A stretch of 64,000 bases of DNA from Octopus vulgaris (taxonomy: Eukaryota): positions 200,136,001 to 200,200,000 of the forward strand of contig OX597814.1 in NCBI GenBank assembly GCA_951406725.2, in the 5' to 3' direction. Below the pieces are notes generated by a model. The model made no database searches, was not told the origin of the DNA, and saw only the letters and a program-made list of their open reading frames with translations. The position numbers were made by a program, and so were the translations under genes. Shown piece by piece: positions 5,531 to 56,938 of this stretch (position 1 is its first letter; each line of letters begins with the position of its first letter).

Positions 5531-5880
5531 TGGAAGGTTTGGAGATGATGTACAGGTATTATATATTAGAAGAAATGAGGTAATCAGAAAATTGGATGGT
5601 TTATATTTACAGATATTTATTTATATATTACATTTTTTACATATATATCACATTTTTTACATATATATCATATCATTTAGATCATTAGCGCTTTCTCCCA
5701 TTCTAGTGGGGTTTTCAAATAAAAAATCTTTGATTTGAAAACCCCACTAGAAAACCCCACTAGAATGGGAGAAAGCGCTAATGATCTAAATGATAAGATA
5801 TATATGTAAAAAATGTAATATATAAATAAATATCTGTAAATATAAACCATCCGATCTTCTGATTACCTCATTTCTTCTAA
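5531..5880. mobile_element. Fold-back (inverted) PLE-like remnant in a (TA)n array
   Basis: Arms ~5566-5720 and ~5733-5880 are reverse complements (small internal duplications in each arm); (TA)n on both sides. Confidence 0.65.
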
Positions 5881-5959
5881 AATATATATATATATATACA
5901 CACACACACATATGTACATACATATATACGGGCACATATATGTATGTAAAAAAAAAAAA

Positions 5960-8115: not shown

Positions 8116-8439
8116 TTATTTAGATTCGATGGATATTTGTCCTCTTCTTGTTTGTTGTTAACACAATTTTTCGGCTGATATACCCTCCAGCCTTCTTCAG
8201 GTGTCTTCAGCATATGGTGTAGTGGTTAAGAGTGCTGGCTACTAACACCAAGATTCCAAGTTCGATTCCAAGCAGTGACCTGAACAATAATAATAATAAT
8301 CATAATAATAATATTGAAAAATACCTTAGGAATGAGAACCCAGATTTGAAATTTCCCCAAGACACCTGAAGAAAGCTGGAGGGTATATCAGCTAAAACAT
8401 TGTGTTAACAACAAACAAGATGAGGACAAATATCCATCA
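8116..8439 (+). mobile_element. SINE family C with inverted 5' tail copy
   Basis: Inverted tail 8116-8207 (minus strand gacac CTGAAGA a GGCTG..CAGCC GAAA), then head, (TAA)n and forward tail with decayed HHR at 8361-8406. Confidence 0.8.
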
Positions 8440-8792
8440 CAGAACCAAAAGCAAACATATTTTCACTGAAGATTGGGAAAGAAAAATCAGCCAACATGAT
8501 GGTGGTGTTTTTTTACAACTATTATGCGATGTCAAAGCAAGAAGACAGGACACACTCACATACAGATGTGTGTGTGTGTGCACATGTGTGTGTGTGCACA
8601 TGTGTGTACACATGACAAGCTTCTTTCAGTGTTTCACTCTGACAAATCTTTTCACAAAGCTTTGGTCACTTGGGGCTATAACAGAAGAAAGTTGATCAGT
8701 GTGTCACACAATGGGGTTGAACCAGGAACCCTGGGATTGAGAAGCAAACTTTTTACCACATGACAACTGACATCATCTTCATAATATATATA

Positions 8793-9197
8793 TAATGTGG
8801 GTGGCTAATTTGCAATTTTACAACCTAAAGGCAGGAATATATACATTGATAAAATAAACAAGGGCATTATTAAGCACCAGTATTGCTAGAAATAAGAGTC
8901 AAAACAACTCAATAGCCAACAAAAGCACTATCTTAATGAGCTGATTCCATAGGGAGCACTATCTCCAAAGGGAGACAAGCTCCTTATGGTCGTAAATACA
9001 ACCGGATCATCGATGATTTTGTGTTTCGATTCTTAATGCTTCTTAAGGCTTATCAGTGGCTCTCACCATGCCTGGGGTTAAAATCATCTCGCCTTGTAAG
9101 CTCATGAGATTTCCATGGGGATCGTATGCTGATTTCCTAAATGGTAAAAGTGAAAATTATAAATAATGTAGGTGGCTAATTTGCAATTTTACAACCT
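8793..9197 (-). mobile_element. (TA)-flanked ~370-bp element with 35-bp terminal direct repeat and degenerate HHR-like motif
   Basis: taatgt(g/a)ggtggctaatttgcaattttacaaccta at ~8793 and ~9163; minus-strand CTGATAA..GAAAC at ~9052-9019; hairpin 8947-8988. Confidence 0.55.
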
Positions 9198-9213
9198 ATA
9201 TATGCGTGTGTGC

Positions 9214-9258
<45 letters not shown>

Positions 9259-9262
<4 letters not shown>

Positions 9263-9661
9263 TTAATAAATTTTAGGGTAGCAAAAAATTCTAGAAAAAT
9301 TCTCCGCTACCAGCAGTCAAGTGAGAAGGAAAAAATAGTCAATAGACTATATAATATACATTCAAACATATAAGGGACGGCCATAATAGGACATCTGATT
9401 CACTAGAAAGAGCAGCCAAACTCCAAACCACTAATAGTTGTAATTCTGAAATGGAAAGAGAAATAAAAACGTTTACCCTCTCCTTTCTGGACTATGACTA
9501 GTTTCGGCAATCTTTTGTAAATAAATTAATTTAATTAATTTATTTACCACTGGCGTTGCCTCGTCAGCAGAAAAGCCAAGGACTAACGTATATCCACGAG
9601 GCGATGATAAACATGCAACGAGTTTATATGCTATAAATTTTCAAAAATTTTTCAAAAATTT
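9259..9661 (-). mobile_element. (TA)n-embedded non-autonomous PLE-like element carrying a hammerhead
   Basis: Unique 400-bp block between two (TA)n arrays; contains HHR 9482-9575 and the shared motif tttggctgctctttctag; minus-strand end gctaccctaaaatttattaattaa. Confidence 0.65.
9482..9575 (-). ncRNA. Type I hammerhead ribozyme (complete)
   Basis: Minus strand: stem I CUUUUCUG/CAGAAAGG (8 bp, one G-U), core CUGACGA, stem II GGCAA/UUGCC capped by a 14-bp AU hairpin, GAAA, stem III ACUA-GUCA-UAGU, cleavage triplet GUC (cut between 9490 and 9489). Confidence 0.85.
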
Positions 9662-9859
9662 GTATATATATATATATATATATATTACTATTTTAGTCAT
9701 ACTGAAGGACAAGCATGAAGGATTTAGCCAAACAAATCGTTCTCTTGCCTATTTCTTTTTCAGTTGGTTCTTATTCTATCGTATCATTTTGCTAATACAT
9801 TGACTTATGGAGGTGTAAACAAACCAACATTGGTTGTCAAGTACTAAGAAGACAGGCAC

Positions 9860-10139
9860 AAACACACACACACATGTATATATGCATACAAATGAATATA
9901 TACACATGTATACATATACACATGCATGTGCATATAAACATGCATATATGTGCACATCTATACATACACATATATACATGCATATATATATATATGTATA
10001 GATAAATATATATATTTATACATCGATATGTATATGTATATACAGAGACATATTTATGTATATACATGTAAATGTATATATATATTCATGTATATATACA
10101 TTCATATATGTGTATGTATATACACACACATGCATATAG

Positions 10140-10170
<31 letters not shown>

Positions 10171-10200
10171 CATGGATATATATATATATATATATATAAA
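9860..10200. repeat. Compound (TA)n/(CA)n/(TACA)n microsatellite array
   Basis: Directly visible. Confidence 0.95.
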
Positions 10201-10339
10201 TTAGAGAAAAAAACCCACTATTATGCAATTTAAACAATGATAGACATAAGCCAAATCATAAATAAAAAATAAAATATTTTTATAAAACACGTAACTAGGT
10301 CACAAAAAGTATAAAAATGAATAATCTATATATAATAAG

Positions 10340-10375
<36 letters not shown>

Positions 10376-10377
<2 letters not shown>

Positions 10378-10636
10378 TAATTATAATAAAGGGTTAATTG
10401 CAACAAGTTGCTCAAAACCACATACCGAAAATATTAGAAATGGCAGCCAAATAGGTCACCATTTCTCCTACTAGTAAAAAAGTCTCCACAAACAAACAGA
10501 TGGGTTGCAAATTCTGTTTGTTTGTGGAGACTTTTTACTAGTAGGAGAAATGGTGACCTATTTGGCTGCCATTTCTAATATTTTCGGTATGTGGTTTTGA
10601 GCAACTTGTTGCAATTAACCCTTTATTATAATTAAT
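10376..10636. repeat. Near-perfect 125-bp inverted repeat, 12-nt loop, within a (TA)n-bounded PLE-like block (10372-10740)
   Basis: Arms 10376-10500 and 10513-10636 are reverse complements, with one homopolymer indel seen. Confidence 0.9.
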
Positions 10637-10730
10637 ATAATCCTTACCAAATATGGTCTTTTCCATACCAATAAAACTACTAAGTGAAATTTATTAATTT
10701 TATTAAATTAATCATATTTCATCCTTTTTG

Positions 10731-10763
<33 letters not shown>

Positions 10764-12470: not shown

Positions 12471-13570
12471 ACACCCTTATCCACTAGGCCACAAAGCCAG
12501 TAATACTACTTACACAAAGTATGAGATATTTAAATCTATTCTAATGATTGGTTATTGATTACATTAGTCTGATAGATTTAAATATATCATTTTCAATCTA
12601 ATTATTGCAGTTGTCTCAGTGGTCTTGTGGGTAGAGACATGGACACAGCAACACACAAACCTCTTTGACAAAGGATCAATCTTGGCCTGTACTGATGAGG
12701 CTATTTGTAAAAGTATCCAGTTTTTTTTTCTTTCCCTTCTCCATTTACAGAAAAAATGCATCAGGGCATTGATTATTATTATTATTATTATTATTATTTC
12801 TTAAATAGATCCTTATTAATATTTTTTATTTGAAAGCTTTGTCTTTTAAAACAATGAGGTCATATCCATTTTCATTAGTTCATTTCTGCTCAGAAATATT
12901 AATTGGTTTTATCCCCCTAAAAATGAGTGGGATATATTTTATTTTTATTTTCAGGTGTCTGCTTCAAAAATATAAATATCTGAGTTTTATTTTTCACATT
13001 ACTTTGTCATTTACCTAGATAATTATTGAGCTCTAAATTAGGCAAAAGCCCTCACATTTTGCAGAGGTTGCAGTCAATTAAGTTGACTTTAGTAAAAAGG
13101 AAGTGTTAGAAACAGGCATGTGCTTAGATAATGTCTTACCACTATTACAAAATCATAAAAGACCAGGCTTTCAATTAAAAAGTTATTACTGAAATTCATT
13201 AGACAAACTTATTTGAGAAGAGCATGTGAGAGCAGACCTTGAAAAGAGAGGGCAAGTCACTGAAAAGGTGACAATTAGTGACAAAAGAGGACATAGACTA
13301 AAAAACAACTGATTGATTGTTTAACCAACACATTAAACAAATGACTGATGAATTAGTTGGTTAGATATTTAACCAATTGACTGAGAGTAAAGAAGTGATA
13401 ATGAACCAGTGCATGTGTTTATTATTATTGGTGTAATGACCCCACCACCACAAGACAGTAAGATTTATTTAAGAATAGTACTGGGGAAATATTTCACTTT
13501 TGTATTTGGTTTGCAAGATTCTTGATGTGTTGTATCTTTGGAGGATCATTATTCATTTCTTTATTAATTA

Positions 13571-13866
13571 CTAGCAGTATCGCCTGGCGTTGCTCGGGTT
13601 TGTAAGGGAAATAACTATATAAGCATTTTTAGAGAGTTATAGCCAAAAAATAGCAAAAAAATGCATTAAAAATGGGGAAAAATGATGGTAAATTTTTTTT
13701 TAAATCGTAGAATCATCGTAGACGCGCGCTAATACCCAGAAGGGCTCGATATGAATCACTACTATAAGATACCCGGTTTTGGTTAAACTGCACCGCAAAA
13801 TGTGGGAGTAGTTAAAAATCTAAATCGTAGGAGACAGACACACAACTTGACTTTTATATATAAAGA
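13571..13866 (-). mobile_element. Non-autonomous Helitron (same family as 790-1182)
   Basis: Minus strand a|TCtttatatataaaa ... cccgagcaacgccaggcgatactgCTAG|t; inserted at an AT dinucleotide. Confidence 0.85.
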
Positions 13867-14027
13867 TTTGTGAAATGGTTAACAAATTAACTACTTAACT
13901 AATCAGATGTTTCATTAATTGTTTGGTTAACCAATTGATCAATTAGGTTTGTCAAAGTCTTTTTGTCAGCATATGGGATCTCATCAATAACATACCTTCT
14001 CTATTCCAGGTCTGCATATTCTATTAT

Positions 14028-14415
14028 TGTTTTACTTATTTCAGTCATTTGAATGTGGCCATGTTGGAGCACCACCTTTAGTTGAGCAAATTGACCCCAG
14101 GACTTTTCTTTCTAAGCCTAGTACTTATTCTATTGGTCTCTTTTGCCGAACTGCTAAGTCACAGGGTCGTAAACACACCAGCATCGGTTGTCAAGCCATG
14201 TTGGTGGGGACAAACACAGACACACAATCATATACACACACACACATATATATATATATGACAGGCTTATTTCATTTTCCATTTACCAAATCCACTCACA
14301 AGGCTTTTGTCAGCCTGAGGCTACAGTAGAAGACACTTGCCCAAGGTGCCATGCAGTGGGACTGAACCTAGAATCATGTGGTCAGTAAGCAAGTTACTTA
14401 CCACACAGCCACTCC
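14028..14415 (-). mobile_element. SINE family A, full length
   Basis: Complete reverse-complement match to the + strand copies. Confidence 0.9.
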
Positions 14416-15287
14416 TTAAAAACATCAAATCCAATAAGGTAATACTTTAAGAACAGATAAGTATGATATAATATAGTAACATATTTAAAGAATAATGTTC
14501 TTGAATTGTCTATATGAGAAAATAGAACATCTTAAAGCAATCAAAGCACCCACTGATACAAGTATTATGGGTGTTGTAAAATTGTACAGACAAGACAAAA
14601 TAGCCAAGAAATTTGATTGATAAATTAAATAAGTGGTGCAAATTGAGTCTGAGATTTTGAGTTTCAGGTTTGATTTTCTATAAATCTCTTTGCTAGGTTG
14701 ATGGGTGAGGGAATAACATTAATTTAATTCATCAGGTGACATTTAGACATTTAAATGGAGAATGCCATAAATTACAGCAAACCGTTGTACATTTAGGTAT
14801 AATATTTCCTATATTAATATCACCAAGTAATATTCTAAATAACGAAGTGAATAAACAACTATTAAATTTCAGTTTCTCTTTGATGCACCTGTTAATTAAT
14901 TTCTAAGATCCAATAGAAACTACTTTACGTCAAGGAATTGTGTCATAAAAGTTGAAAGACGAAATCCTGGAGAAGAGGAAGTGTAAATAGAGCATTTAAA
15001 TGGGAATAGCTAGTTTGTGAAATGGGAATCTTTCCTGATTGAAACTAAAAAGTCTGAACCAATAAAAACGTGGAAATGTCAAGAGAAAGTCTAATCACTG
15101 ATTCTTATTACGCATGTATTGAACTCTCAAATATCTTATTTCGATATTTTATCGAAGGGACGTGGTGCAGAAAGCCGAGTGTTCTATTTAGTTTTAATAT
15201 ATCGTGCTTCCAAATTCAAATCTCATTGAAGTTAATTTTTACTTTCACTTATTCAGTATCCTTATTCAATATGGAACTAGCATACAG

Positions 15288-15701
15288 GGATCTTTTTGGT
15301 TTGAATGGCAGTTTTTAAACCATAGATAACTAAAAAATTTTAAACTTCGTATACTGGTAGAATATGTTTATAAAACATCTTTTTCTCTTGACTTTATTGA
15401 GAAAATTCTATAGTTTGTAAGATATTTGTTTTTTTTCTTCAATTTCTGCAATTTCAACCAATCAGTGACGTCCACTGAGTTAAAAAACATTCTGTGCCAT
15501 ATGAATATGTCCCTCTTTTAAGAAACAGATTGGGTTTATTTACATTTGTGAAGAAAAAAAGATACCCTTGACCCCACCCCCACCCTAAACCTAACCCTAA
15601 AACAGATTGAAATGCAATAGATCGATACTAGGGTCATAATTATGGGTGACAATTTCATATGACACAGCTAGAAAAAACTGCCGTTCAAACTGAAAAGATC
15701 C
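15288..15701. mobile_element. MITE with 30-bp TIRs and 8-bp TSD (possibly Merlin-like)
   Basis: TIR ggatctttttggtttgaatggcagttttt / aaaaaactgccgttcaaactgaaaagatcc; TSD gcatacag at 15280-15287 and 15702-15709; superfamily is a guess from GG termini and 8-bp TSD. Confidence 0.8.
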
Positions 15702-18649
15702 GCATACAGGGGATCTTAACTATAAAATTCCAACCTGATTGAAAATGACTTTGTGCCACATTAAAACACATCAATATTCAGTTTAAGAAAAAAATTGCCA
15801 AATTTTAGCATGAATAGAGTTTATAAAAACAATAGGTTTTCCTTTTCATACAAATCGGTAAAAATTATTTCTTAAATTCTGCAACTTTTTTTCTTTTTTT
15901 TAATTCTTAATTACTGATATTTAGTGACCTAATTTTCACTAATTACCCCAGACATATTTCAAGCTACCTATTGATTGCTGTATCACAGGGATTAAATCAT
16001 TTTCTGTAAACTCAGCATTTTTTTTAACGTGTCTCATCAGCCATTCAACTTTATATTTATTTCTATATTTAGTACAAGTTACATTTTCTCAATTACATTT
16101 AGTTCATCATTACTGCTTCTTGTGTAATAATTACCTTTTCTCTGTTGGTTTGTATTAATTCAATACAAACATTCAATATCCTTCTGTCTCCCTTCTATTT
16201 CTCAAAAGTTATTGTTCTTTTATACAGAACATCTCTTATAGAAATTTCTTTAGATTAGCCTCCTTTTTTTTTTCTCATACAGCATTGTACAGATACATTT
16301 CCAGTATTATTGATATTAATAATCTATCAAAAAGATGCTGTACTTTTGCTTAGTCTATCAGGGCAGTATTTCATCATCCGAAAAACCTAGAGGTAGTTTG
16401 CATCACAGTCAGTTCAGTTAACAATTACCAAACTTCATGACACTTCAAGCTAAATATATAAGCTTTCACCTGAGCTGTTCCTACTTCAACAAGCTGCTCC
16501 TTATTCCAGGTAAAAAAAAAATGCACCTTGATAATTCACTTTCAACCAGAATGCCATCATTCTTATCATGATTACATATTCAAAAGGTAATGTTTTAGTC
16601 AAATTCATTAAGAAACAGTTACTTTAATGCTGTTCAAACATTGTCATTAATTATACTTCAAAACAAGAAACCTATAATTTAGTGTATATAATTTGCTTCC
16701 TTTCTGCCACATTTTATATTCCTTCTTTAAACAATTCAACATCATCTCCATAATAACAACAACTTGATTTAATGCTTATACGTGATCTAAAATAGAATAT
16801 TTTGTTAGATTAGTCTTCTAGAAAACACTTACTTTTAAATAATTTATCACACACCTCATTATTTTGACTCTTTGAAATATAAATTCAATTTAAGTATCTT
16901 CTTCAGATGATGCAATATGAACATATAACTTAATACCTGTATCTAACAGACACTTTACATCCATTGAAAGTACTTTTACTATCATCATCACCATCATCAT
17001 AATCATCATGAAATTTCTATTTCTGTACAAATCCCTTCTTTGTAAGTAAAATAAAGGAAGAAATCTATCAGTGAAGAAATAGTGTTCATGTTTATGTTTC
17101 TGATGTTTTGAAGTTAAATATACAGCATCTATAAAGATGTAGTTCAATCGTCGAGACAAAGAAGTCATTGTTACTTTTTTTTTTTTTTTTTTTTTTTACT
17201 ATCAAAAAGTTTTATTATTTCACTGTTTCGCTACATTATTTGTAACTTGTCAGTGCATGCTTCTTCTTCTGGGCTAGTCATGCGTTGACCTTTTTTGAGA
17301 TCCTGCTGTCTTGAGCTATTAATACACCAGATAAATAATGTATTTGTAAATGATTAACCATAATAAAAAAAGATGACGCTAACTGTTAACAAACACTATT
17401 TATATATATATATGAAAAATCATTCGATTGTGTATATGTGGTTATAGCCCAGAAGATGTGGGTTACTATGATGTGCCAGAAAAGAATGTCATCGCAACAG
17501 GTACAAGACATCCTAGAAGTAAATGTCATGGTAGACTTAGACGGTTGATTCTTAAATGAAGTTGAAGGTGGGAGTGCAGGGGCATGTTCAATAAGCTTTT
17601 TTGTTTGTTGTTCTAATGAACTTCAAAACATTGAAGGAATCAATTGGAAGTGGAAGGAAAGAGAAGGCATTGAAAAGTATTTGGTAGATTTATACTGGTG
17701 ACGTTACTTTGCCAATTAATGAAATTAATGAAATATGAAAATTAGAATGCAAAGAATTATATGCAAGATTCACAAAATGCAACTATATTTTTAGCATATA
17801 TACTTTTTTTATGAATATGATACTTTGGACAAAACTTTTATAGATAACTTGCTAAAATACTAAAAAACATTGTTGGGTGTAACTTAAAATAAAGATTCCT
17901 ATTATAATGTAAGGTAATCATTAATTTTAATGAGTTCTTTTCACAACCAGTTAAATATCTTACTTATCTTTCCTGAACATGGTTTTTCCTTTATTTAGCC
18001 ATTAAACCTTCTTATAATAAATAACTGTGTGCAAGAAATTTCTTCTTTTTCTTTTATTACTTCCTTTAATCATTTAAGTTTTAAGTTAACATGTTTAATT
18101 TTTTAATTCTGTTTAATTTTGATTAAAAACTGTATTTTTTGTATGTAAAGTGTGTTGTTTATCATGACTGTTTTAATGTCTGTGTGTCCCTGATGGCATA
18201 GGTCAGTCAAGTTTCCGGAACAGCAAATCCCCATTAATTTTGATTCTGAATAATCATCTCTTCTGTGAGGTCCACCATTCAGAAATCTTAACTCACAGCT
18301 ACTTACAACGTCAGTAAACGAAACAAATTTTTCTTGATAGATTTATGATTGTCTGATGAAATATTCCATCTTCTGACATCTACAGCTTCCTCTTCTAGTT
18401 TAATCATGCTAACATTCATCTCCCGTTCTTGTATACATTATATTTCACAACATAATTCATTTTGTTGTAGTATTCTATATCTACTGAATTACTGCTTTGT
18501 AGAAAAAATGGTTCTTTAGCCTTTACATGTTTCATCAAATAGCCAATATATCACTGTTCTTTCTTTTTTTTTTTTTACTTTTCTTTTTCTGAATATATAT
18601 TTAAGCCTACTTAAATAATCACTTTTCACTATATCACATGGAAGTTATA

Positions 18650-18885
18650 CTCTTTACTCTTTTACTTCTTTCAGTCATTTGACTGCGGCCATGCTGGAGC
18701 ACTGCTTTTCAGTTGAGCAAATCGACCCCAGGACATATTCTTTGTAAGCCTAGTACATAATCTGCCTCTTTTGCTGAACGGCTAAGTTACGGAGACATAA
18801 ACACACCAGCATTGGTTTTCAAGTGATGTTGGGGGGACAAACACACACACACATATATACATATATATGATGGGCTTCTTTCAGT
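18650..18885 (-). mobile_element. SINE family A, 3' part
   Basis: Reverse complement of the family A tail. Confidence 0.8.
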
Positions 18886-19649
18886 TACAAACTTTATAGA
18901 ACTTCCTACCTACCACCCAAGAAAGTCTCCATTTTTGCTGGCCACTTGGTGATATTACATGCACTCAGTAATATTTTAGCCTGAGCCTCATCATCCTGTA
19001 TAATACACAGCAAACAGTTATAAAATATCTTCCAAACTAAGAAAGGAGCATCTTTGTGGTTGCTCAATCAGCTAAAATCAGGGGCCTAATTCTCCTCATG
19101 CCATACTCTACCATCTTAAAAAAGGAATACATTTGATATTGTATCCAAGGGGACACTATGCCCACCCCCACCAAAAATACAAAAACAAACATATACACTA
19201 AAAATTACAGTTATAAGGCCTCCAATCAAAGATCTGCTTAACCAAGACTGTCTTGGGTCTTGATAACAATAAAACCTCTGCTCATGTGAAACCAACACTG
19301 CAACAAGGTTTGTGAAAGCATTTCAATCACACCCCAACATGTTACCTTGTTCCTATCTTCATCGAACTCTTCAATCTCTCTCTCTCTCACACACACAAAC
19401 TCTTTGCTACTGTTTAAAAATATACTGCAGTTTGTACTATATCAAGAATACCAACATCTATCACTTCACTAACAACTTACTCATTGTTCTCCCTTCTAAC
19501 ATATCAGGGATTATAGAAACAGATACAGCCAAAAGCAATCTTCATCATCACCTTTTTCTCTTTCTCTCTCTCTTTCTATTCAGTAACATCCATTTTGGCT
19601 TCTATAAAATCAAATTCACTGGAGTTTTACTTTCAAATCACATTCAACA

Positions 19650-20570
19650 GTTTTGAGAACTTTGGTGAAAGCAATTGCCCTCAACATTAGCAAACAATTT
19701 AACTATGTTCTTCATAGGATTTATCTTGTCAGCATACCCAAACATGGCCTACACTCATCTCTCTATTCTGAGATTGAAAGATTCCTATCGTACTGTTGCT
19801 GCATGGGCCAATGCGGCTTTCTTTAATCACACCGTTTTATCAATTCTGGTGTACCCCAAGTTTCAACAATGTCTCCCATGCCCTTCCTGCTGAACACAAG
19901 CAACCTACTTGCTATCACATTTAACATCTCACACGTCTATACTGATGATCTTAAACTTCACACTCCTGTAGCCTTCCATCACAGGAGTCATCTGCAAATA
20001 ACATAAACAGCTCAAGCTCTATGGCATTGAGATCCTTCTTCAGTGGGGACTTGAGACATGACAACCACGTCTCTTTCAAAAACAATTTATATATAACTAG
20101 CACTATGACCCGGCAACGCCGAGTCATAGTGCTAGTGCATGCATGCGCACATACACGCGAGTACTGTCCAAATCTCCGACCAATCACATACAGCTAGCTG
20201 GCATTCAATTGGCGTATCAAGTTTTGGGCATTTTGATTGGGTATTGGATAGAAAATTCACAAAAAGTCACTTCTGTTGATTTTTAATGGCTTTGCGGGGT
20301 GACTGGGGAAATGTAAAGATGTGCATGACCACCCTTGGATGGTTTTGAATGACCATAGAAAGTGCGAGCCCTCTAACTGAAAAACTGTGGATTTGTATAA
20401 AGGACACGCACACAGACATTTTGCCGTTTATAGATATAGAGATAACACCCATCTGTGCACACATCAAGAGGGATTTGAAACTCTCTCCTTCCCCATGTTT
20501 TTCCTGCAAACACTGACAGATGTTCAAGCGGAATGTCATCTGTACCATTGTAAGCACACTCAATTGTCAT
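19650..20570 (-). pseudogene. Highly degenerate LINE RT fragment interrupted by a Helitron
   Basis: Remnant peptides ..CQCLQEKHGE.. and ELFMLFADD (YADD-like) on either side of 20097-20442. Confidence 0.4.
20097..20442 (-). mobile_element. Non-autonomous Helitron, second family
   Basis: Minus strand a|TCtctatatctataaacggc ... long terminal hairpin ending CTAG|t. Confidence 0.8.
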
Positions 20571-20612
20571 AGATGTGGGTTCCCTCCCTACCGGTTATGG
20601 TATTTGTCAATA

Positions 20613-21010
20613 GTGGAGGCGCAATGAACCAGTGGTTAGGGCAGCGGATTCACGGTCATAGGATCGTGGTTTCGATTCCCAGACCGGGCTTTGTGAGTGT
20701 TTATTGAGCGAAAACACCTAAAGCTCCATGAGGCTCTGGCAGGGGATGGTGGTGATCCCTGCTGTACTCTTTCACCACAACTTTCTCTCACTCTTACTTC
20801 CTGTTTCTGTTGTACCCTGTATTTCAAAGGGCCGGCCTTGTCACTCTCTGTGTCACGCTGAATATCCCTGAGAACTACGTTGAGGGTACACGTGTCTGTG
20901 GAGTGCTCAGCCACTTACACGTTAATTTCACAAGCAGGCTGTTCTGTTGATTCGGATCAACTGGAACCCTCATCTTCGTAACCGACGGAGTGCTTCCAAG
21001 AAAAATCCCA
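20613..21010 (+). mobile_element. tRNA-derived SINE, family E, full length with TSD
   Basis: Head ggaggcgcaatg..cagtggttagggcagcgg..ggtttcgattccc; 11-bp TSD atttgtcaata at 20602 and 21011; head-only copy at 37131-37247. Confidence 0.9.
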
Positions 21011-22544
21011 ATTTGTCAATAAGCTTGCATTTAAATTTTTTAGATCTTGTGATCTAATTTGTGTCTTGTGCTGGTTCTATTTAAACTATATTCATATGAT
21101 GTCCTTCCATCTTCTGAGTAGTAGCCTTAAAGTACTTGAAGAAATTGTTTATAAATTAAAGTAAAACAAAAACAAAAAATATATATATAAATAACTGAGA
21201 AGTCATTTCTATATAGAATTTTCTTTTTGAGCTCTTAATAGGGAGCTGACATGATATTCTGTTGAGGGGAAAATGACTATTATTACTGCTACAATAGATT
21301 CTGTTGTCTTCTAACTATTTCTTCCAACCAGTTAATTGGCTATCAAGCCGATGGTAATGAATTTAAAATATGGAATCCAATCTTGCAGAAACATTAATTT
21401 TCCAACAACTTCCTATTTAACAATGGAAGGTGACATAATTATTTCCATCAGCTGCAGAAATGGTCTTTTATTGTCCCTTTATGTAGGTATACATTAGTAT
21501 TATATGCTGTTCTCGTGTTTATCATGATTTGAAATCAATGTAGAGGGTTTGCAAACGGGCAGTATCACATATAAAAAGAAAGTTTTACACTCAAGCCATG
21601 AGTTACTTATTCTTGACTTCTTCCATGTAAGAGGAAGCATCCAACAAATTAAGTCTGTTCTACAAATTAAGCTTGTCTCTCTGGAAAAGTTGGATCAAAG
21701 AAAATTGACAATCAAAAACATATATTTTCTGCTTAGTATAAGATATGATAGCAAAGGATTTTAAAAAGCCTGTTATCATCTTTATAACAGTTTCAAATAG
21801 ACAACGTATCTTTTACAAAGTCGTATGATAATAATTTATTCTTGAACAGTTACTGAGTATCCTATATGCAAACCAAATGGGTCTAAGACCGAAGTATTGC
21901 TGACAAATTTTAATTGGTTATTCACCATACTCACAAAAATATTGTTCATCTGATTGGAAAGTCATTACATGATAAACTGCTGTATTCCCTGAACGAGTGA
22001 CCCCCTCACTGCCATTTCCATAAGTACATTCACCCACACTTTGTGATTGTATACTCCATACAACTATACTCAAGAAATTTATTTACATAGGCACAGGCAT
22101 TGCTGTGTGGTAAGAAACTTGTCTCCAACAGGCGGTGAGCTGGCAGAAATGTTAGCACGCCGGGCGAAATACTTAGCAGTATTTCATCTGCCATTACATT
22201 CTCAGTTACTCAACTAATTCTGAGTTACTCACCTATATTCTGAGAATTGCAGATATAGACATCTTGTTTTTATAACTTCAGTTTTTTGCTGAGATTGCCA
22301 GGTCTTCTTGAGCGCTCTTTATAAATTCTCTAAAGTCTGAGATGACTAGAGTGTGATGGGATGGAGCTCATAGCAAAAATCAGTTCAGTTGTAACTGTGT
22401 GTGCTGTGGGAGAGAATCCCAATGATTGTGGTACAGGTAACTGTTGGGAAAGGAATATAAAGGATATTGGAATGTTGTAAATAAAGGAAAAAGAGAGTGA
22501 GATACGTATGGAGGAAATGAGCAAATAGAGAGGATAGTGGCAGG

Positions 22545-22584
<40 letters not shown>

Positions 22585-23294
22585 AAGAGTGTGGATAAGA
22601 AAAGAGAGAAAGTAATGAATTAACATAATTAAAACGGATAAGAGAAAAGTCATTAACGATTTTTATATTTATCAATCATTTTTACATATTGTTTTTAAAA
22701 AATGCTATTGTTTAAAATTCAAAAGTGAATAAAAGTGAAAACCCAATGGGCTCTTAACTTTTTTTCATGTTTTTGTTATTTAATTTACTTTCATATTTGC
22801 TTTTAAGTATCTTCATAGTAGTGTTTTAAAAAAATGTAATCACACATTTTCCTATTTAATCCTAAGAAAGAAAATATAAGAAAAATTTAAAATAAGTTTT
22901 ATTGTTTTTCATCTGCCTGCAATTTCCTACTCTTTCTGTATTTTAAATTATTTGTTAAAATAATGAACTACAAAATACTTATTTAATTGGGCTGCAGCTA
23001 TAACACAGTTTCATTAACCTATATAATCATCATGTTGAGATTATTACGATTTCAACAGAAGGTACGCTTCAGTTTTGACAAAGCTTGTTCTTTTGATTAC
23101 ATTTCCTAGTTTGATATATTGCTTGGTCATTGAAAAAGTTACCAACTACCATGGTCATATTAAAAAACTAACTTTTTGTTTGACTGATTTAAAATATCTG
23201 AAGAGTGAAAAATTTATGTCTGTACAATAAGAGCTGATTCACTACAGGGTATCTGGTTAGTTTAATAATCCAAAATGATCCCCAAATTTAGAAT

Positions 23295-23632
23295 CCCTGC
23301 CCCGACTGGCTCCTGTGCCGGTAGCATGTAAAAAGTACCATCTGATCATGGCTGATGCCAGTGCCGCTGGACTGGCTCCTGTGCCGGTAGCATATAAAAA
23401 GCACCATCTGAACATGGCCAATGCCAGTGCTGCCTGACTGGCTCCTGTACCGGTAGCATGTAAAAAGCACTCACTATACTCTCAGAGTGATTGGCATTAG
23501 GAAGGGCATCCAGCTGTAGAAACACTGCCAGATCAGATTGGAGCCTGGTGTGGCCTCTTGGCTTGCCAGTCCCCAGTCAAACTGTCCAACCCATGCCAGC
23601 ATGGTAAACAGACGTTAAACGATGACAATGAT
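23295..23632 (+). mobile_element. RTE LINE 3' tail with three ~64-bp subrepeats
   Basis: gactggctcctgtgccggtagcatgtaaaaagcacc x3, then the aggaagggcatccagctgtagaaac tail. Confidence 0.85.
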
Positions 23633-24429
23633 CTTCATCCCTCTACCGTAATTTACATGCATTTAATAAGTCCTCTTATACAGTAATCTCTGATCCATTT
23701 GTTTCTGCACTTTACATTCATTTTCCCATCGAAGCATGGGTTAGATGAATACATATTACTAAAAAATTGCTCCTATCACCATTTGCCTTTCCTGTCATTA
23801 ACTCTTTCCCTTTGTCCCATGAGGGAATGCTCATTCGACATGTCTTTCAAAGTACATAACTACAATCACATAATTTGTTGAAAGGCAAATAGTTCAACTC
23901 AGTACAGAATACAAACAAACATACACAAATACAAAGGGCTTCATACACTCTCCATCTACCATATTCACTTATGAGGCATTGGCTTACCTGAGGCTACAGC
24001 CGAACTCACTTGTTCCATGATTGAACCCGAAAGCACATTATTATGAAGCAGACATCTTAATTGCAAACCCATGTCTGCACTATTAAAGTTGAGTAATTTT
24101 TAATAAATGTCGCTTCAGGATTTTATTCACATTTATTTCTTCTATAAAAAATCATTATTCTTTAACCTTTACTCTTCTAAATTCTCTTTTCTGTTCAGTC
24201 AAACAATTTGCCTTTACTATAACTTTCCAGGAGGATATTGATAATTTCTAAGAATTGTTTTCTTGGCCAACATCTATTAATAAAATTTAATTATACATAT
24301 GCTAATTAAATAAGCTGCTACAATACCATGTGCTCTTGGTCACAGAAACTATAGTTTTGATTTATAGATTTGTATTTAATTCAATCTAGACATTATTTCA
24401 CGGAAGTAGAGAATTAATAGTAACATAAT

Positions 24430-24960
24430 GGTAAATTCATAATATAGTTCAACCAGAAGGAATTGCAATTTTTAGATGTTTTAATTATGAAAGGAGATGG
24501 AAAGATAGAAACAGACATCTACTGCAAACCCATGGATTCGTGGCAGTATCTTCTCTTCCCATCCTGTCATCTTAAACATACAAGAACAAACATTCCATTC
24601 AATATTGCAAAGAGAATTTGTACAATAACATTGAATTCTACAAAATGTGATCAAAGAATAGATGAATAGAAAAACATACTTATTCAAAGAGTATTTCCTC
24701 TAGCTCTAATGACAAATGAAAATAGAAAGGATAAATATTCGAGATGTAAGGAAGGAAGAAGTAAAACCAAGTGAAATGTCTTAGCAGATGCATTTACATT
24801 TAACCTTAGAAATGCAGAAATATTTGGTCATATTTATAAAAACTCATAGAAAATCAACCAGTCATCGAAAGCAAAAGGCAACCCAAGAAATTGTAAAAAT
24901 ATGGTAACTAGGGCAAAAATCCCAAAGCAAACAAGTTTGTAACTTCACTATTATAAGATG
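24430..24960 (+). pseudogene. Penelope-like element RT C-terminal/thumb remnant
   Basis: ELQFLDVLIMK..KIETDIYCKPMDSWQYLLFPSCHLKHTRTNIPFNIAKRICTI matches the PLE pattern FLD..TD(I/V)Y.KPT...YL...S.HP; stops and frameshifts downstream. Confidence 0.85.
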
Positions 24961-25179
24961 CAAAAGACCAAATTTTACATGCCTATATATATATATTTAT
25001 ATATATATACATATATATATATATTTATATATATATATACATATATGTATATATATATATATATATGTCTATCTATTTATCTATCTATCTATCTATCTAT
25101 CTGTCTGTCTTTCTTTCTTTCAGTCTACCTACCTATATATTTATAAATAATTGAATAAGTTGGAGTCAATACAGATAGT

Positions 25180-25876: not shown

Positions 25877-25929
<53 letters not shown>

Positions 25930-25932
<3 letters not shown>

Positions 25933-26140
25933 TATAGTTCAACTAGTCACCATGATAGATCGTTAGCCACTAAACACATTTTTTTTCTCTCCTTGTTTTT
26001 TTCTGTGTCCCTTTCTGTAGATGAGCGTAGGCTCAAAATGTAAAAGACTTTTTCTATTCCTGAGCATTATACAAATACATATGTTTGTTTTGTACACCAC
26101 CTGTCTTCATCTTTTGTTTTTTTCGTAAACTCTCCCTATA
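25930..26140 (+). mobile_element. (TA)n-embedded PLE-like element with decayed minimal HHR
   Basis: cttt CTGTAGA t GAGC gtag GCTC aaaat gta aaag at ~26011-26046; ends ctctccc(ta)n; minus-strand copy at 29461-29578 retains ggctcGAAA. Confidence 0.55.
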
Positions 26141-29277: not shown

Positions 29278-29577
29278 AGGTGCAGGAGTGGCTGTGTGGT
29301 AAGAAGCTGGTTTCTCAACCACATGGATCCAGGTTCAGTCCCACTGCGTGGCACCTTGGGTAAGAGTCTCCTACTATAGCCTCAGGCCGAACAAAGCCTT
29401 GTGAATAGATTTGGCAGAAAAAAACTGAAAGAAGTCCATTGTATGTATATATATATATATAGGGATGGATTCACAAAAAAAAACCCCAACAAAGGACGAA
29501 GACAGGTGGTGTAGACAACAAACAGATGTATTAGTTTAACGCTCAGGAAGTGAAAAAGCCTTTAAAATTTCGAGCCC

Positions 29578-33849: not shown

Positions 33850-34065
33850 GGCATATAGTGTAATGATTAAGGGCATGGGCTACTAAACCAAAGATTGCGA
33901 GTTCAATTCCAGGCAGTGCTTTGAATAAATAATGATAATGATAATATTATCAGAAAATAGCTTAGGAATGAGAACCCAGGGTTGGGTTCAAAATTCTACA
34001 GCTGAACTGTTGTGGTGACAGTGAACAAGATGAGGACACATATCTGTCCAATGTAAATAATGTAT
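33850..34065 (+). mobile_element. Degenerate SINE family C (HHR segment lost)
   Basis: Head, (TAA)-like linker, cttaggaatgagaacccagg and aacaagatgaggac..aatgtaaataatgta are retained. Confidence 0.7.
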
Positions 34066-44998: not shown

Positions 44999-45120
44999 AC
45001 AGTTCTATATTTAAGAGATGAGGAATTATGTATATTATTTACATTTGACGGGCATGTGGCATAGTGGTTAAGAGTGCGGACTACTAACCCCAAAATTCCA
45101 AGTTCAATTCCAGGAAGTCA

Positions 45121-45165
<45 letters not shown>

Positions 45166-45387
45166 TGATGATAATAATGATCATGATGATAATAATAATA
45201 ATAATAATGATAACAACAACATCAAAAAATACCTTAGGAATGAGAACCCAGGTTTGAAATTTTCCCAAGACACCTAATGAAGAAACGTGTTAACAACAAA
45301 CAAGATGAGGATAAATATCCGTCTGAAATGGTGTGTTAACAACAAACAAGATGAGGACAAATATCAAATCAAATGTAAATAATATAA
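44999..45387 (+). mobile_element. SINE family C with short inverted 5' tail copy
   Basis: 45000-45051 is the reverse complement of the family 3' terminus; head from ~45050; stem II of HHR deleted; flanked by aagatatttatttcttta / aaggtatttatttcttta (TSD-like). Confidence 0.8.
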
Positions 45388-47540: not shown

Positions 47541-47862
47541 ATCAGTGAAAATACATGTAATAATTATGTTCTCTGAGTTACCAACTTCAATTGGGTATGT
47601 GTGTATGTGCGTGTGTGAGAGAGAGAAAGAAAGAGAGAGTATAATCTCATGAGTGCGTGTGTGGTAGATATAGATAGTCTTTCATTACACTGTAACTGTC
47701 TACAGATGTCTAAACACATCAGTAACAAGCATGTCAAATCAACAAGTTCGCGTCTTTATGATTGCTTGGCCTACTAGAAATAACAGCCAAATCTCCTGCA
47801 ACTAACTCTCTCTCTCCACACATACACACACACACACACATGCATGCACAGATGGTTTAGAC

Positions 47863-51312: not shown

Positions 51313-51355
<43 letters not shown>

Positions 51356-51758
51356 GACACAAGAGAAACTACCTTTAACAGGTAGTTTTACACCGGAAAA
51401 GAAGCAGTCATGTTGCCTTGTCTTCACCCTGTCATCACGGTGAAATTTCTAAACATATTCGCTACCCTATATATTTTAGGTGTATATATACATGTATACA
51501 TATATATATGCCTACATATATAAGCACATATATATGTTTGCTTTTATTCTGAGAGATAATCCTTTCTACAATAGGTGCAAAGCCAAATCTTTTGGGGGAG
51601 GGCGCTAGTCAATGGACATTGATTCCAATGTTCAACTGTTATGTTTTTTTTTATTGACCCTGAAAGGATGATGACAGTCAAATTCGACCATAGCAGAATT
51701 TGAACTTAAAACATAAAGACGAACCGAATGCTGCTAAGCAGTTGGTTTGGTGAGTTAA

Positions 51759-53409: not shown

Positions 53410-54522
53410 GTGGTCCAGTGTAGCTTATCATATTTAATGTCCTACAGTGAAGAATTCCGGGTAGAGGTTGGGGTCCACCAAGGTTCAGTCCTCAGTCCCC
53501 TCCTATTTATCATAGTCCTCCAGGCAATAACGGAGGAATTCAAGACAGGTTGCCCCTGGGAGCTCCTCTATGCTGATGACCTTGCTCTAATTGCTGAGTC
53601 ACTATCAGAACTGGAGGAGAAGTTTCAGGTGTGGAAACAAGGATTAGAATCGAAGGGCCTTAGAATTAACCTAGCCAAAACCAAAGTCCTAATAAGTAGG
53701 AAGGTAGATCAATCACAAACGCCTTCAGGTAGATGGCCCTGCTCGATCTGTAAAAAAGGTGTAGGTAGAAACTCTATAAGATGCACCAAGTGTAAGCTAT
53801 GGACACATAAGAGGTGCAGCAATGTCAAAGGAAGGCTAACTAGGAAAATAGTTTTTGTCTGTGGCAAATGCTCAGGAGCAATAAACACTGGAAATGTGCA
53901 GAGACCAACTTCTGCCACGTTCCAGGAAGACAAACTAGAAGTAGTTGATAGCTTCCGCTACCTAGGAGACCAAGTCAGTAGCGGGGGTGGGTGTGCTGAA
54001 AGTGTAACTGCTAGAGTAAGAATAGCCTGGGCAAAGTTTAGAGAGCTCTTACCCCTGCTGGTGACAAAAGGCCTCTCGCTCAGAGTAAAAGGCAGACTGT
54101 ATGATGCATGTGTACGTACAGCCATGCTACATGGTAGTGAAACATGGGCCGTGACTGCTGAGGATATGCGTAAGCTCGCAAGAAATGAAGCCAGTATGCT
54201 CCGATGGATGTGTAATGTCAGTGTTCATAATCGTCAGAGTGTAAGTTCCTTGAGAGAAAAGTTGAACCTAAGAAGCGTCAGTTGTGGTGTGCAAGAGAGA
54301 CGGCTGCGCTGGTATGGTCATGTGACGAGAAAGGCTGAAGATAGTTGTGTGCAAAAGTGCTACACCCTAGCAGTTGAGGGAACCTGTGGAAGAGGTAGAC
54401 CCAGGAAAACCTGGGACGAGGTGGTGAAGCACGACCTTCGAACTTTAGGTCTCACTAAGGAAATGTCTAGAGACCGAGACCTATGGAAGTATGCTGTGCG
54501 TGAGAAGACCCGGCAAGACTAG
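53410..54522 (+). CDS. RTE LINE ORF C-terminal part: reverse transcriptase (5'-truncated) with embedded PHD-like finger
   Basis: GVHQGSVLSPLLF, LLYADD, FRYLG, RRLRWYGHV, GRGRPRKTW; homology starts at ~53443, so the listed start codon is probably flank-derived. Confidence 0.9.
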   Translation: MVQCSLSYLMSYSEEFRVEVGVHQGSVLSPLLFIIVLQAITEEFKTGCPWELLYADDLALIAESLSELEEKFQVWKQGLESKGLRINLAKTKVLISRKVDQSQTPSGRWPCSICKKGVGRNSIRCTKCKLWTHKRCSNVKGRLTRKIVFVCGKCSGAINTGNVQRPTSATFQEDKLEVVDSFRYLGDQVSSGGGCAESVTARVRIAWAKFRELLPLLVTKGLSLRVKGRLYDACVRTAMLHGSETWAVTAEDMRKLARNEASMLRWMCNVSVHNRQSVSSLREKLNLRSVSCGVQERRLRWYGHVTRKAEDSCVQKCYTLAVEGTCGRGRPRKTWDEVVKHDLRTLGLTKEMSRDRDLWKYAVREKTRQD

Positions 54523-56938
54523 TCAGGCCATAACCCGTGGCCCCTACCTGGGACGTAGTCAGTCCTCCTGTGCATACCTTCCTTCTTGTGACACTTATGA
54601 AGACCTGTTGAGGCAAGTGAAAATCAAATCAAAACAAATCAAAATAGATGAACATCAGTGGAATTGTATTCTTTGTGGTACCAGTGCCGGTGGCACACAA
54701 GAAAACCACCCAAACGTGGCCGTAGCCAGTACCGCATCGACTGGCCTCCGTGCTGTGGGCACAACAAACACCATCCGATCGTGGCCGTTCGCCAGCCTCA
54801 TCTGGCACCTGTGTCGGTGGCACATAAAAACACCATCCGAAGACCCGGCGACGTAGTCAGTCCACCTGTGCATACCTTCCCTCTTATGACACTTGTGAAG
54901 ACCTGTTGAGGCAAGTGTGTGACACTTGCGAAGACCTGTTGAGGCAAGTGTGTGACACTTGTGAAGACCTGTTGAGGCAGAGGCAAGTGTGTGACACTTG
55001 TGGAGACCTGTTGAGGCAAGTGTGTGACCCTTGTGAAGACCTGTTGAGGCAAGTGAAAATCAAATCAAACCAAATCAAAATAGATGAACATCAATGGAAT
55101 TTGTATCTTTGTGGTTCCAGTACCGGTGGCACACAAGAAAACCATCCGAACGTGGCCGTAGCCAGTACCGCATCGACTGGCCTCCGTGCTGTGGGCACAA
55201 CAAACACCATCTGATCGTGGCCGTTCGCCAGCCTCATCTGGCACCTGTGTCGGTGGCACATAAAAACACCATCCGAAGACCCGGCGACGTAGTCAGTCCA
55301 CCTGTGCATACCTTCCCTCTTATGACACTTGTGAAGACCTGTTGAGGCAAGTGTGTGACACTTGTGAAGACCTGTTGAGGCAGAGGCAAGTGTGTGACAC
55401 TTTGTGAAGACCTGTTGAGGCAGAGGCAAGTGTGTGACACTTGTGGAGAACTGTTGAGGCAAGTGTGTGACACTTGTGAAGACCTGTTGAGACAAGTGAA
55501 AATCAAACCAAACTTGTGAAGACCTGTTGAGGCAAGTGAAAATCAAACCAAATCAAAATAGATGAACATCAATGGAATTTGTATCTTTGTGGTTCCAGTT
55601 CCGGTGGCACACAAGAAAACCATCCGGTTCGCCAGCCTCATCTGGCACCTGTGTCGGTGGCACATAAAAACACCATCCGAAGACCCGGCGACGTAGTCAG
55701 TCCACCTGTGCATACCTTCCTACTTATGACACTTGTGAAGACCTGTTGAGGCAAGTGTGTGACACTTGTGTAGACCTGTTGAGGCAAGTGAAAATCAAAA
55801 TCAAAATCAAATCAAATCAAATCAAACCAAATCAAAATAGATGAACATCAATGGAATTTGTATCTTTGTGGTACCAGTACCGGTGGCACACAAGAAAACC
55901 ATCCGAACGTGGCCGTAGCCAGTACCGCATCGACTGGCCTCTGTGATGTGGGCACATAACAAACACCATCCGATCGTGGCCGTCCGCCAGCCTCATCTGG
56001 CACCTGTGTCGGTGGCACATAAAAACACCAACCGAAGACCCGGCAAGACTAGTCAGGCCATAACCCATGGCCCCTACTTGGGACGTAGTCAGTCCACCTG
56101 TGCATACCTTCCTTCCTTCTTGTGACACTTGTGAAGACCTGTTGAGGCAAGTGAAAATCAATCAAATCAAATCAAAATAGATGAACATCAATGGAATTTG
56201 TATCTTGTGGTACCAGTGCCGGTGGCACACAAGAAAACCATCCGAACGTGGCCGTAGCCAGTACCGCATCGACTGGCCTCCGTGCTGTGGGCACGCAACA
56301 AACACCATCCGATCGTGGCCGTTCGCCAGCCTCATCTGGCACCTGTGTCGGTGGCACATAAAAACACCATCCGAAGACCCGGCAAGACTAGTCAGGCCAT
56401 AACCCGTGGCCCCTACCTGGGACGTAGTCAGTCCACCTGTGCATACCTTCCTTCTTGTGACACTTGTGAAGACCTGTTGAGGCAAGTGAAAATCAAATCA
56501 AATCTAAACAAATCAAAATAGATGAACATCAATGGAATTTGTATCTTTGTGGTACCAGTGCCGGTGGCACACAAGAAAATCATCCGAACGTGGCCGTAGC
56601 CAGTACCGCATAGACTGGCCTCCGTGCTTTGGGGACGTAACAAACACCATTCGATCGTGGCCGTCCGCCAGCCTCATCTGGCACCTGTGTCGGTGGCACA
56701 TAAAAACACCATCCGAGCGTGGCCGTCTGCCAGCCTCGTCTGGCACCTGTGTCGGTGGCACATAAAATCACCCACTACACTCTCGGAGTGGTTGGCGTTA
56801 GGAAGGGCATCCAGCTGTAGAAACACTGCCAGATCTGACTGGCCTGGTGCAGCCTTCGGGCTCCCCAGACCCCAGTTGAACCGTCCAACCCATGCTAGCA
56901 TGGAAAACGGACGCTAAATGATGATGATGATGATGATG
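53443..56938 (+). mobile_element. Young 5'-truncated RTE-clade LINE with tandemly expanded 3' UTR
   Basis: Uninterrupted RT ORF end, six repeat units in the UTR, terminal aggaagggcatccagctgtagaaac domain and (GAT)n tail. Confidence 0.9.
54504..56714 (+). repeat. Six tandem 335-436-bp units with nested 31-37-bp and (AAATC)n subrepeats
   Basis: Unit starts (gaagacccggc) at 54504, 54839, 55275, 55679, 56034, 56373. Confidence 0.9.

Follow-up and report, generated by a model that had tools for sequence, protein, structure and literature searches.

What are the short, mutually dissimilar blocks that lie between neighboring (TA)n arrays in a 64,000-nt stretch of Octopus vulgaris DNA (contig OX597814.1; hereafter the window), and why do they carry the same 18-nt motif? 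An earlier note, made from the letters of this DNA, had proposed that they belong to a diversified group of non-autonomous RNAs of the Penelope-like element (PLE) type, with the motif as a conserved cis-element for a reverse transcriptase (RT) or an endonuclease. Two kinds of known elements come into play. Metazoan retrozymes are units of 170-400 nt with a type I hammerhead, which are expressed as circles and are thought to be copied by PLEs (Cervera & de la Pena, 2020, PMC7229834). Their repeats are reviewed as having no conserved motif that would indicate a helper and, seemingly, no promoters; their recognition and the identity of their autonomous helper are stated as an open question (PMC7761336). 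In a recent preprint, a helper is argued for from phylogeny and co-occurrence (Li, Clavereau & Pollet, 2026, 10.64898/2026.07.22.740005). The PLE clades Naiad, Neptune and Hydra are described as preferring (TA)n targets and as leaving inverted, 5′-truncated copies and one-sided tails, with Naiad and Hydra elements from octopus included (PMC8557442). The features of the locus are collected in Table 1, where A, B and C are the three neighboring inserts and D is a further site of the motif.

Table 1. Inserts, hammerheads, hairpins and motif copies, with their positions in the window.
Feature	Position	Strand	Basis or remark
Element A, retrozyme-like monomer in circular permutation (non-coding unit of 371 nt with a terminal redundancy of 41 nt)	8787..9198	-	direct repeat, junction contigs
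Redundancy of A (41 nt), 5′ copy	9158..9198	-	95% identical to 8787-8827
Redundancy of A (41 nt), 3′ copy	8787..8827	-	GCCACCC at its end, followed by an AT-rich run to (TA)5
Decayed type I hammerhead of A	9000..9061	-	core 9056-9050, true GAAA 9020-9017, predicted cut after 9005
Motif copy A (TTTGACTCTTATTTCTAG)	8886..8903	-	pattern search; within ~32-nt depth peak 8877-8908
Hairpin ending CCC after motif in A	8862..8878	-	decayed here; better paired in loose ends of relatives (by eye)
(TA)21 between A and B	9217..9259	.	other flanking arrays 8784-8794, 9663-9685, 10342-10372, 10736-10762
Element B, insert of 403 nt with (TA)21 and (TA)11 as neighbors	9260..9662	-	fold z -3.9
Intact type I hammerhead of B	9482..9575	-	descriptor match, fold
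Motif copy B (TTTGGCTGCTCTTTCTAG)	9403..9420	-	pattern search, weight matrix
Hairpin ending CCC, 7 nt after motif in B	9374..9395	-	z -1.8; 7/200 shuffles as good
Terminal hairpin of B, ends GCTACCC, then AT-rich into (TA)n	9276..9311	-	z -3.8
Element C, one 3′ fragment present twice, inverted and head-to-head	10373..10735	.	arms 10376-10499, 10514-10636, one 1-nt indel
Motif copy, left arm of C	10434..10451	-	pattern search; absent from the list of the earlier note
Motif copy, right arm of C (TTTGGCTGCCATTTCTAA)	10561..10578	+	pattern search, weight matrix
Hairpin ending CCC, 14 nt after motif, right arm of C	10593..10621	+	alone no better than shuffles
99-nt extension, one arm of C only	10637..10735	+	tail-like or separate insert
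Motif copy D	47774..47791	-	pattern search; just after (GT)n/(GA)n run

Element A is a closed, head-to-tail non-coding unit. With 371 nt and a GC content of 37%, it lies within the range used to define retrozymes (non-coding, 150-450 bp, GC <50%). Contigs from 4 of the 24 public runs listed were matched to positions 8765-9216 at 80% likeness; this comparison covered A, and B, C and D are known here as single copies. One of the contigs (record 11 of run X2) passes from 8918-8868 through 66 nt into 9181-9128, where 57 nt would be expected for a head-to-tail junction. A loose end preceding 8787 resembles 9131-9157, and in other contigs 9197 is connected to the hammerhead core of A (9052). Between them, the contigs extend over every part of the unit. 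Among the contigs listed, none covers the whole unit or two hammerheads, nor is there a full dimer, and the circular fold of A was no better than those of shuffled sequences (5/40 as good). From the closed non-coding unit, the head-to-tail contig and the terminal redundancy, the identification of A as a non-autonomous PLE-type (TA)n insert is well supported, and the element is very probably retrozyme-like.

The hammerhead of A has decayed in this copy, where G8, G12 and stem positions are altered and no descriptor match was obtained. In the related contigs, the letters appear to be those of a canonical type I fold. They restore G8 of the core at 9051 in 85-87% of the depth (1818/2100, 1548/1831 and 191/225) and G12 at 9020 in just 67, 58 and 44%. 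The letters of the relatives at 9004 and 9001 restore 5 bp in stem I (69-94%), and those at 9022 and 9047 restore 5 bp in stem II, with 9047/9023 as a possible compensatory pair; the inner hairpin is restored by their letters at 9040 and 9031. Stem III, of 4 bp with a TCGA loop, is intact, and the predicted cut site is an AUC, a triplet that appears to be rare among natural hammerheads (PMC1636495). This restored fold was paired by hand from per-position, unphased letters, taken from the differences listed, beyond which there are 45 more. Two other readings of this region were considered: CGAAAC at 9028-9023 was rejected as the catalytic core because position 9027 is different in most relatives, and the idea of a type III topology was dropped after the letters of the related contigs had been seen.

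In element B, the hammerhead is intact. It consists of an 8-bp stem I, CUGACGA, a 5-bp stem II, GAAA, a 4-bp stem III and GUC, with a predicted cut after 9490, and stem II encloses an inserted AT-rich hairpin of 14 bp. It was the sole descriptor match in the window, and none of 40 shuffled windows gave one as good; Rfam models gave no score to it. The insert has a GC content of 33% and lies, at 403 nt, within the same retrozyme range as A. Its circular fold was not equaled in any of 40 shuffles, aided by AT-rich hairpins, and the similarity between its ends was non-significant as a sign of terminal redundancy (39/500 shuffles). The intact hammerhead between two TA arrays makes it plausible that B is a (TA)n-inserted non-autonomous element of the PLE type.

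Both 3′ ends of the inverted fragment that makes up element C face flanking TA arrays, and its plus arm continues 114 nt beyond its CCC. No hammerhead is present in C, the arms of which extend just ~50-60 nt upstream of the motif. With its inverted, 5′-truncated copy and one-sided tail, C is of the form taken as the sign of a PLE-type insertion; head-to-head inversion with a one-sided extension is described for PLEs (PMC8557442), and by this analogy C is plausibly a PLE-type insert. A retrozyme-like identity is rather probable for B and C. No ORF of at least 100 aa and no ORF for an RT with a GIY-YIG domain is present in A-C. Scanning of 16 of the 42 ORFs of the window for domains gave one RVT_1 match, at 53410, which is unlinked to the inserts, and no PLE protein was found among the ORFs scanned.

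The motif, TTTGRCTNNNNTTTCTAR, is present in five exact copies in the 64-kb window. Since the copies at 10434 and 10561 are the arms of the one inverted element C, these represent four independent sites. When up to one mismatch was allowed, six matches were found vs. 0.20 expected, and none of 100 shuffles reached this number with the pattern, which had been fitted post hoc. Because of this fitting, a leave-one-out test was done, in which a weight matrix trained on three sites ranked the held-out motif above all non-members over 127,966 positions in each of the four cases. With a matrix built from all four sites, the members scored 24-28 bits and the next best position 12.9. Outside the motif, the local alignment scores of A with B (36), A with C (29) and B with C (31) stayed below the shuffle maxima of 38-39. 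The motif is real and beyond chance. In these respects, the earlier note was right: its coordinates for a motif common to three neighboring blocks hold, the blocks are otherwise dissimilar, and the similar motif that it reported at ~47773-47790 proved to be an exact match (Table 1). It had also placed the motif 60-100 nt downstream of a hammerhead or hammerhead-like sequence in the first two blocks, and the distance from the predicted cut to the start of the motif is indeed 69 nt in B, with its intact hammerhead, and 101 nt in A, with its decayed one.

The position of the motif within the inserts is also recurrent. Its sense is that of the hammerhead in both hammerhead-bearing elements, with CUGA-to-motif distances of 153 and 147 nt, and it is directed at the TA-abutting end in A, in B and in both arms of C. 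A hairpin ending in CCC lies downstream of it in all three inserts. Counted from the motif, the first CCC is reached after 21 nt in A, 26 nt in B and 40 nt in C, and the terminal CCC at a variable distance of 84, 124 and 40 nt, respectively. Copy D has no hammerhead, and the nearest (TA)n is ~300 nt away from it. Linkage to a hammerhead thus applies to two of the four sites, and one of the two hammerheads is dead.

The earlier note had, in addition, defined the group by its ends, i.e., CCC followed by an AT-rich run toward (TA)n, and had included the blocks at 25930-26140 and 51351-51470. Such ends are found in A, B and C, but they are not enriched at the TA edges of the window: read in the direction of the array, a CCC no farther than 22 nt from it was found at 10 of 96 edges vs. 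a background of 11.2% (P = 0.64), and the three edges that prompted the idea are among the 10. With GGG as a control (2/96 edges), there is at most a weak asymmetry. Membership of the two further blocks in the group is not supported, as both lack the motif. The first one (25925-26136) belongs to a different family, with 80% likeness to 29446-29576 and a hammerhead-like remnant discerned by eye, and 51353-51499 yielded neither the motif nor a hammerhead descriptor match. Thus, the proposal of non-autonomous PLE-type (TA)n RNAs, to the degrees given above, stands for A, B and C, and its extension to these blocks is not supported. A, B and C abut (TA)n but make up one cluster, and D is located away from (TA)n. 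The window as a whole is AT-rich animal DNA, rich in microsatellites and SINE-like repeats.

Searches of other collections gave few leads. At gathering scores, Rfam produced no matches in the window, and at E<=10 it produced microsatellite and hairpin artefacts only; none of its hammerhead, U1 or U7 models matched over the motif. In viral contigs, the pattern specific for B had no matches; the bare motif had at least 120 there, which are taken as chance. Matches to the core plus motif in metagenomes were likewise attributed to chance, as all six loci were without (TA)n and, by eye, without a hammerhead.

The relatives of A bear on what is conserved around the motif. A is multicopy, with 1,763, 1,982 and 1,384 related contigs in runs X1, X4 and X7, respectively, and its hammerhead body has 2-48 times the depth of its own locus contig. 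The contig of the locus itself in X1 shows one difference in 244 positions. Runs that bear the labels of two other organisms contain it too, there with one gap and 11 differences over 246 positions, and the insertion of A is therefore probably old. Depth peaks at 8877-8908, a core of ~32 nt around the motif: the two motif bins reach 212,845 and 234,307 in X1, where depth is 174-2,189 over the hammerhead body, 13,000-25,000 over 8797-8844 and 54 for the locus contig. As depth is no copy number, the peak is used as a ratio only, and relative to the highest bin of the hammerhead body this ratio is 97, 99 and 88 in X1, X4 and X7. To either side of this core, the loose ends vary in sequence (agreement 0.56-0.72). 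In copies with joints like that of 8911 to 9128, the middle of which is unassigned, the order is the same and the half on the hammerhead side is divergent. In the loose ends 3′ of the motif, the hairpin-CCC is still present by eye, with altered pairs. Seen as depth alone, the peak could stem from an unrelated high-copy repeat with a small number of very deep contigs. Together with the swapped flanks, it supports the conserved cis-element of the earlier note; the role in RT or endonuclease recognition that the note attached to it comes from analogy.

This analogy is with the Poseidon element of the anole (PAc). The RNA that its protein requires is contained in the first 172 nt of the ORF (Frangieh et al., 2024, PMC11167929). 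In PAc, the hammerhead cut is at +26, and the internal start of RT follows at +111-118, ~85-92 nt past the cut, in an AC-rich stem-loop (PMC11167929). In vitro, the protein nicks AT-rich DNA; the RT start site is not homologous to the target, and two starts give rise to a tail (PMC11167929). Since the motif lies 70-119 nt past the cut, in a position analogous to this stretch of PAc, we infer that it is a recognition element for a helper and that the ACCC ends correspond to RT starts. The reading that we favor, to which we assign a probability of about 45%, is that the inserts are non-autonomous, retrozyme-like RNAs mobilized by a (TA)n-targeting PLE, with the motif and the hairpin-CCC as the predicted RNA signal for its RT/endonuclease.

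According to this reading, tandem or read-through transcripts would be cut by the hammerhead into unit-length RNAs, which would probably be circularized. The PLE protein would bind around the motif, at ~70-120 nt past the cut, and nick (TA)n. It would start RT from within the RNA, between a few tens and ~130 nt beyond the motif, with AC-rich ends such as ACCC as start points. The 41 nt repeated at the ends of A would arise from copying beyond one unit, and element C from a second copy in inverted orientation. Among subfamilies, the hammerhead-containing middle may diverge or be swapped, whilst the recognition core would be retained. A more far-reaching version, i.e., a large radiation of circular-RNA retrozymes, with thousands of copies and many subfamilies, that swaps the hammerhead half and keeps motif and hairpin as the signal for a single (TA)n-targeting Penelope-like RT/endonuclease, is doubtful. 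If it were true, the motif would be a portable tag that names the helper, and any RNA bearing it would become a substrate.

The elements might also be retrozyme-like with the motif acting at the DNA level, as an internal promoter of the Pol III or snRNA type from which the units are self-transcribed. The motif is conserved strongly in its primary sequence in a variable pairing context, and it is present in the non-coding elements with a canonical hammerhead and not in the two PLE-like ends of the window with a minimal hammerhead, as would suit a promoter. Moreover, a sequence that resembles the octamer consensus, TTGCAAAT, is present in A and C. There is precedent as well in hammerhead satellites, with an internal Pol III promoter in that of schistosomes and one of the snRNA type in newt satellite II (PMC2220036). 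However, retrozymes do not seem to carry promoters according to the review mentioned above (PMC7761336), no clean pair of A and B boxes was seen by eye, and the retention of the motif in the truncated 3′ fragment of C, beside the insertion end, is explained equally well by a role in copying. We consider a promoter unlikely; if the motif were one, it would answer how these repeats are transcribed.

Alternatively, the motif could be a passive module of one very high-copy repeat, e.g., a SINE-like one of the D type, which was captured by these elements or inherited from their common ancestor and has no present role in mobilization, in which case B and C may be 5′-truncated ends of autonomous PLEs. 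The narrowness of the depth peak would fit such a history, and so would D, which carries the motif without a hammerhead or (TA)n; furthermore, it is common for truncated PLE ends to be stacked in TA tracts (PMC8557442). Points against a passive passenger are the same sense and similar hammerhead-relative position of the motif (153 and 147 nt, see above) in two otherwise dissimilar elements, and the hairpin-CCC that follows it in three. Also, to either side of the core, the loose ends look like a gradation of A subfamilies rather than like the borders of a sharp foreign insert. The chance that the motif is such a module is small.

That three of the four independent sites fall within 1.7 kb of the 64-kb window (P ~0.008 under uniform placement, in a cluster that was selected for this very feature) raises the question whether the motif is a DNA cue, recognized by an endonuclease, through which new copies enter (TA)n beside earlier motif-bearing ones. 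PLE endonucleases do recognize the DNA of their own pLTR or tail (PMC11167929). Nevertheless, this homing is quite improbable, as the clustering is subject to selection bias, TA arrays are themselves clustered, D is isolated, and a homing cue would not need a fixed sense relative to the hammerhead.

At the 3′ ends of snRNAs, an Sm-type site is flanked by hairpins, and the layout hairpin-(A)UUUCUAG-hairpin-CCC is similar to that, so that the 3′ half of the motif could be the site of an Sm-type protein ring that stabilizes the RNA. By eye, A, B and D match 8 of the 10 positions of the U7 consensus RUUUNUCYNG (PMC5054213), but no copy fits it fully, C matches only 6/10 and its motif is predicted to be base-paired, and Rfam gave no U1 or U7 match over the motif even at E<=10, which leaves this explanation hardly credible.

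Retrozymes and (TA)n-targeting PLEs are already known, and the new element here is a motif common to dissimilar families. A published description of the motif or of the octopus hammerhead families was not found, and supplements or repeat libraries (Repbase, Dfam) may contain them as unclassified repeats. In the available text of the 2026 preprint (10.64898/2026.07.22.740005) and of PMC13282606, PMC4209133 and PMC10886601, the motif is not described, and the supplement of PMC8557442 gave no full match to motif words, some of which may be hidden there by line breaks every 70 nt. A motif in unrelated hammerhead families, at a position like that where the protein binds and RT starts in PAc, makes the question of the helper directly testable.

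A close resemblance is seen to the metazoan non-LTR retrozymes (PMC7229834, PMC7761336, 10.64898/2026.07.22.740005). As in these, the units of 371-403 nt are non-coding and low in GC, contain a canonical type I hammerhead and are found as dispersed monomers with a PLE as the presumed helper, and in A the unit is head-to-tail with an insertion that exceeds a single unit. In contrast to them, families of dissimilar sequence have an 18-nt motif in common, downstream of the predicted cut, and stem II contains an inserted hairpin in both A and B. The copies of A, B and C sit in (TA)n, whereas the main text of PMC7229834 describes retrozymes without mention of microsatellites. Whilst expression as circles is reported for metazoan retrozymes (PMC7229834), A, B and C are known here as DNA. 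Repeat units of 300-400 nt with a hammerhead are also characteristic of newt satellite II and the schistosome satellites, which, as discussed above, have internal promoters (PMC2220036).

With the endonuclease-containing (EN+) PLEs of the Hydra, Naiad and Neptune clades (Craig et al., 2021, PMC8557442), the inserts have in common the location of A-C at (TA)n, the inverted truncated copy seen in C and the extension at one end, although the latter is 99 nt long in C vs. the 30-40 nt published for PLEs, and A-C are, unlike these PLEs, without an ORF. Stem III of B (ACTA..TAGT) has the form found in several Hydra hammerheads (PMC8557442). Hydra-1_Obim, as given there, ends ~40 nt past its hammerhead and lacks the motif, and Naiads are described as being without canonical hammerheads; the 3′ UTR of the octopus Naiad (Naiad_Obim/Ovul) contains a loose look-alike of the motif, as judged by eye (PMC8557442). 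Poseidon from Anolis carolinensis differs from A-C in being autonomous and in having its signal at the start of the ORF, but it offers, by analogy, the model for what is predicted here, i.e., a signal just downstream of a hammerhead (PMC11167929).

Loop II contains an additional, inserted hairpin in both hammerheads, that of the retrozyme-like element A and that of element B, an insert between TA arrays, and these insertions may be the reason why Rfam models miss both. In element A, GTGGCTAATT-like words at 8914-8923 and 8802-8812 (minus strand) are predicted to engage in long-range pairing, and the domain thus closed would hold the 18-nt motif of this element together with the hairpins downstream of it.

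A further family of Penelope-like element (PLE)-like ends, represented at 8117-8438, has a hammerhead that, by eye, is minimal and of the dimer type. Some copies are inverted in part, (AAT)n runs are present, and the 18-nt motif was not found at this or the four other sites in the window.

Loop II insertions and copies of the minimal-hammerhead family in the window
Feature	Position	Character
Loop II insert, element A	9028-9042	5-bp hairpin in relatives of A
Loop II insert, element B	9517-9547	14-bp AT-rich palindrome
PLE-like end family	1417-1718	
PLE-like end family	8117-8438	
PLE-like end family	33851-34062	
PLE-like end family	45052-45383	
PLE-like end family	63538-64000	

The motif is also absent from a (TA)n-flanked family with two copies, 80% alike (25925-26136 and 29446-29577), which has a CCC end and a remnant resembling a hammerhead. 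Neither motif nor hammerhead was found in the TA-flanked insert at 51353-51499, the end of which, GCTACCC followed by AT-rich sequence, is identical in its terminal word to that of element B. Sequences resembling the motif with two mismatches (1106-1124 and 13629-13647) sit in two copies of a different repeat and are treated as chance matches.

An RT ORF fragment at 53410-54522 (Pfam RVT_1, E 1.5e-14), with a PHD-like finger inserted within it, is followed at 54887-56772 by tandemly repeated tails of 33, 73 and 339 nt; with these tails, it may be of LINE type (RTE-like).

A long fold-back insert with TA arrays on both sides (5531-5881) has the short word GAAAA..CCCACTA in common with the insert immediately left of element C (10199-10341), and the two probably represent another PLE-type family. 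In element C itself, an inverted pair of one 3' fragment, the one-sided extension (10637-10735) finishes with CATCC, a T run and GTATAT, which by eye resembles the final nucleotides of the Naiad consensus sequences published for octopus.
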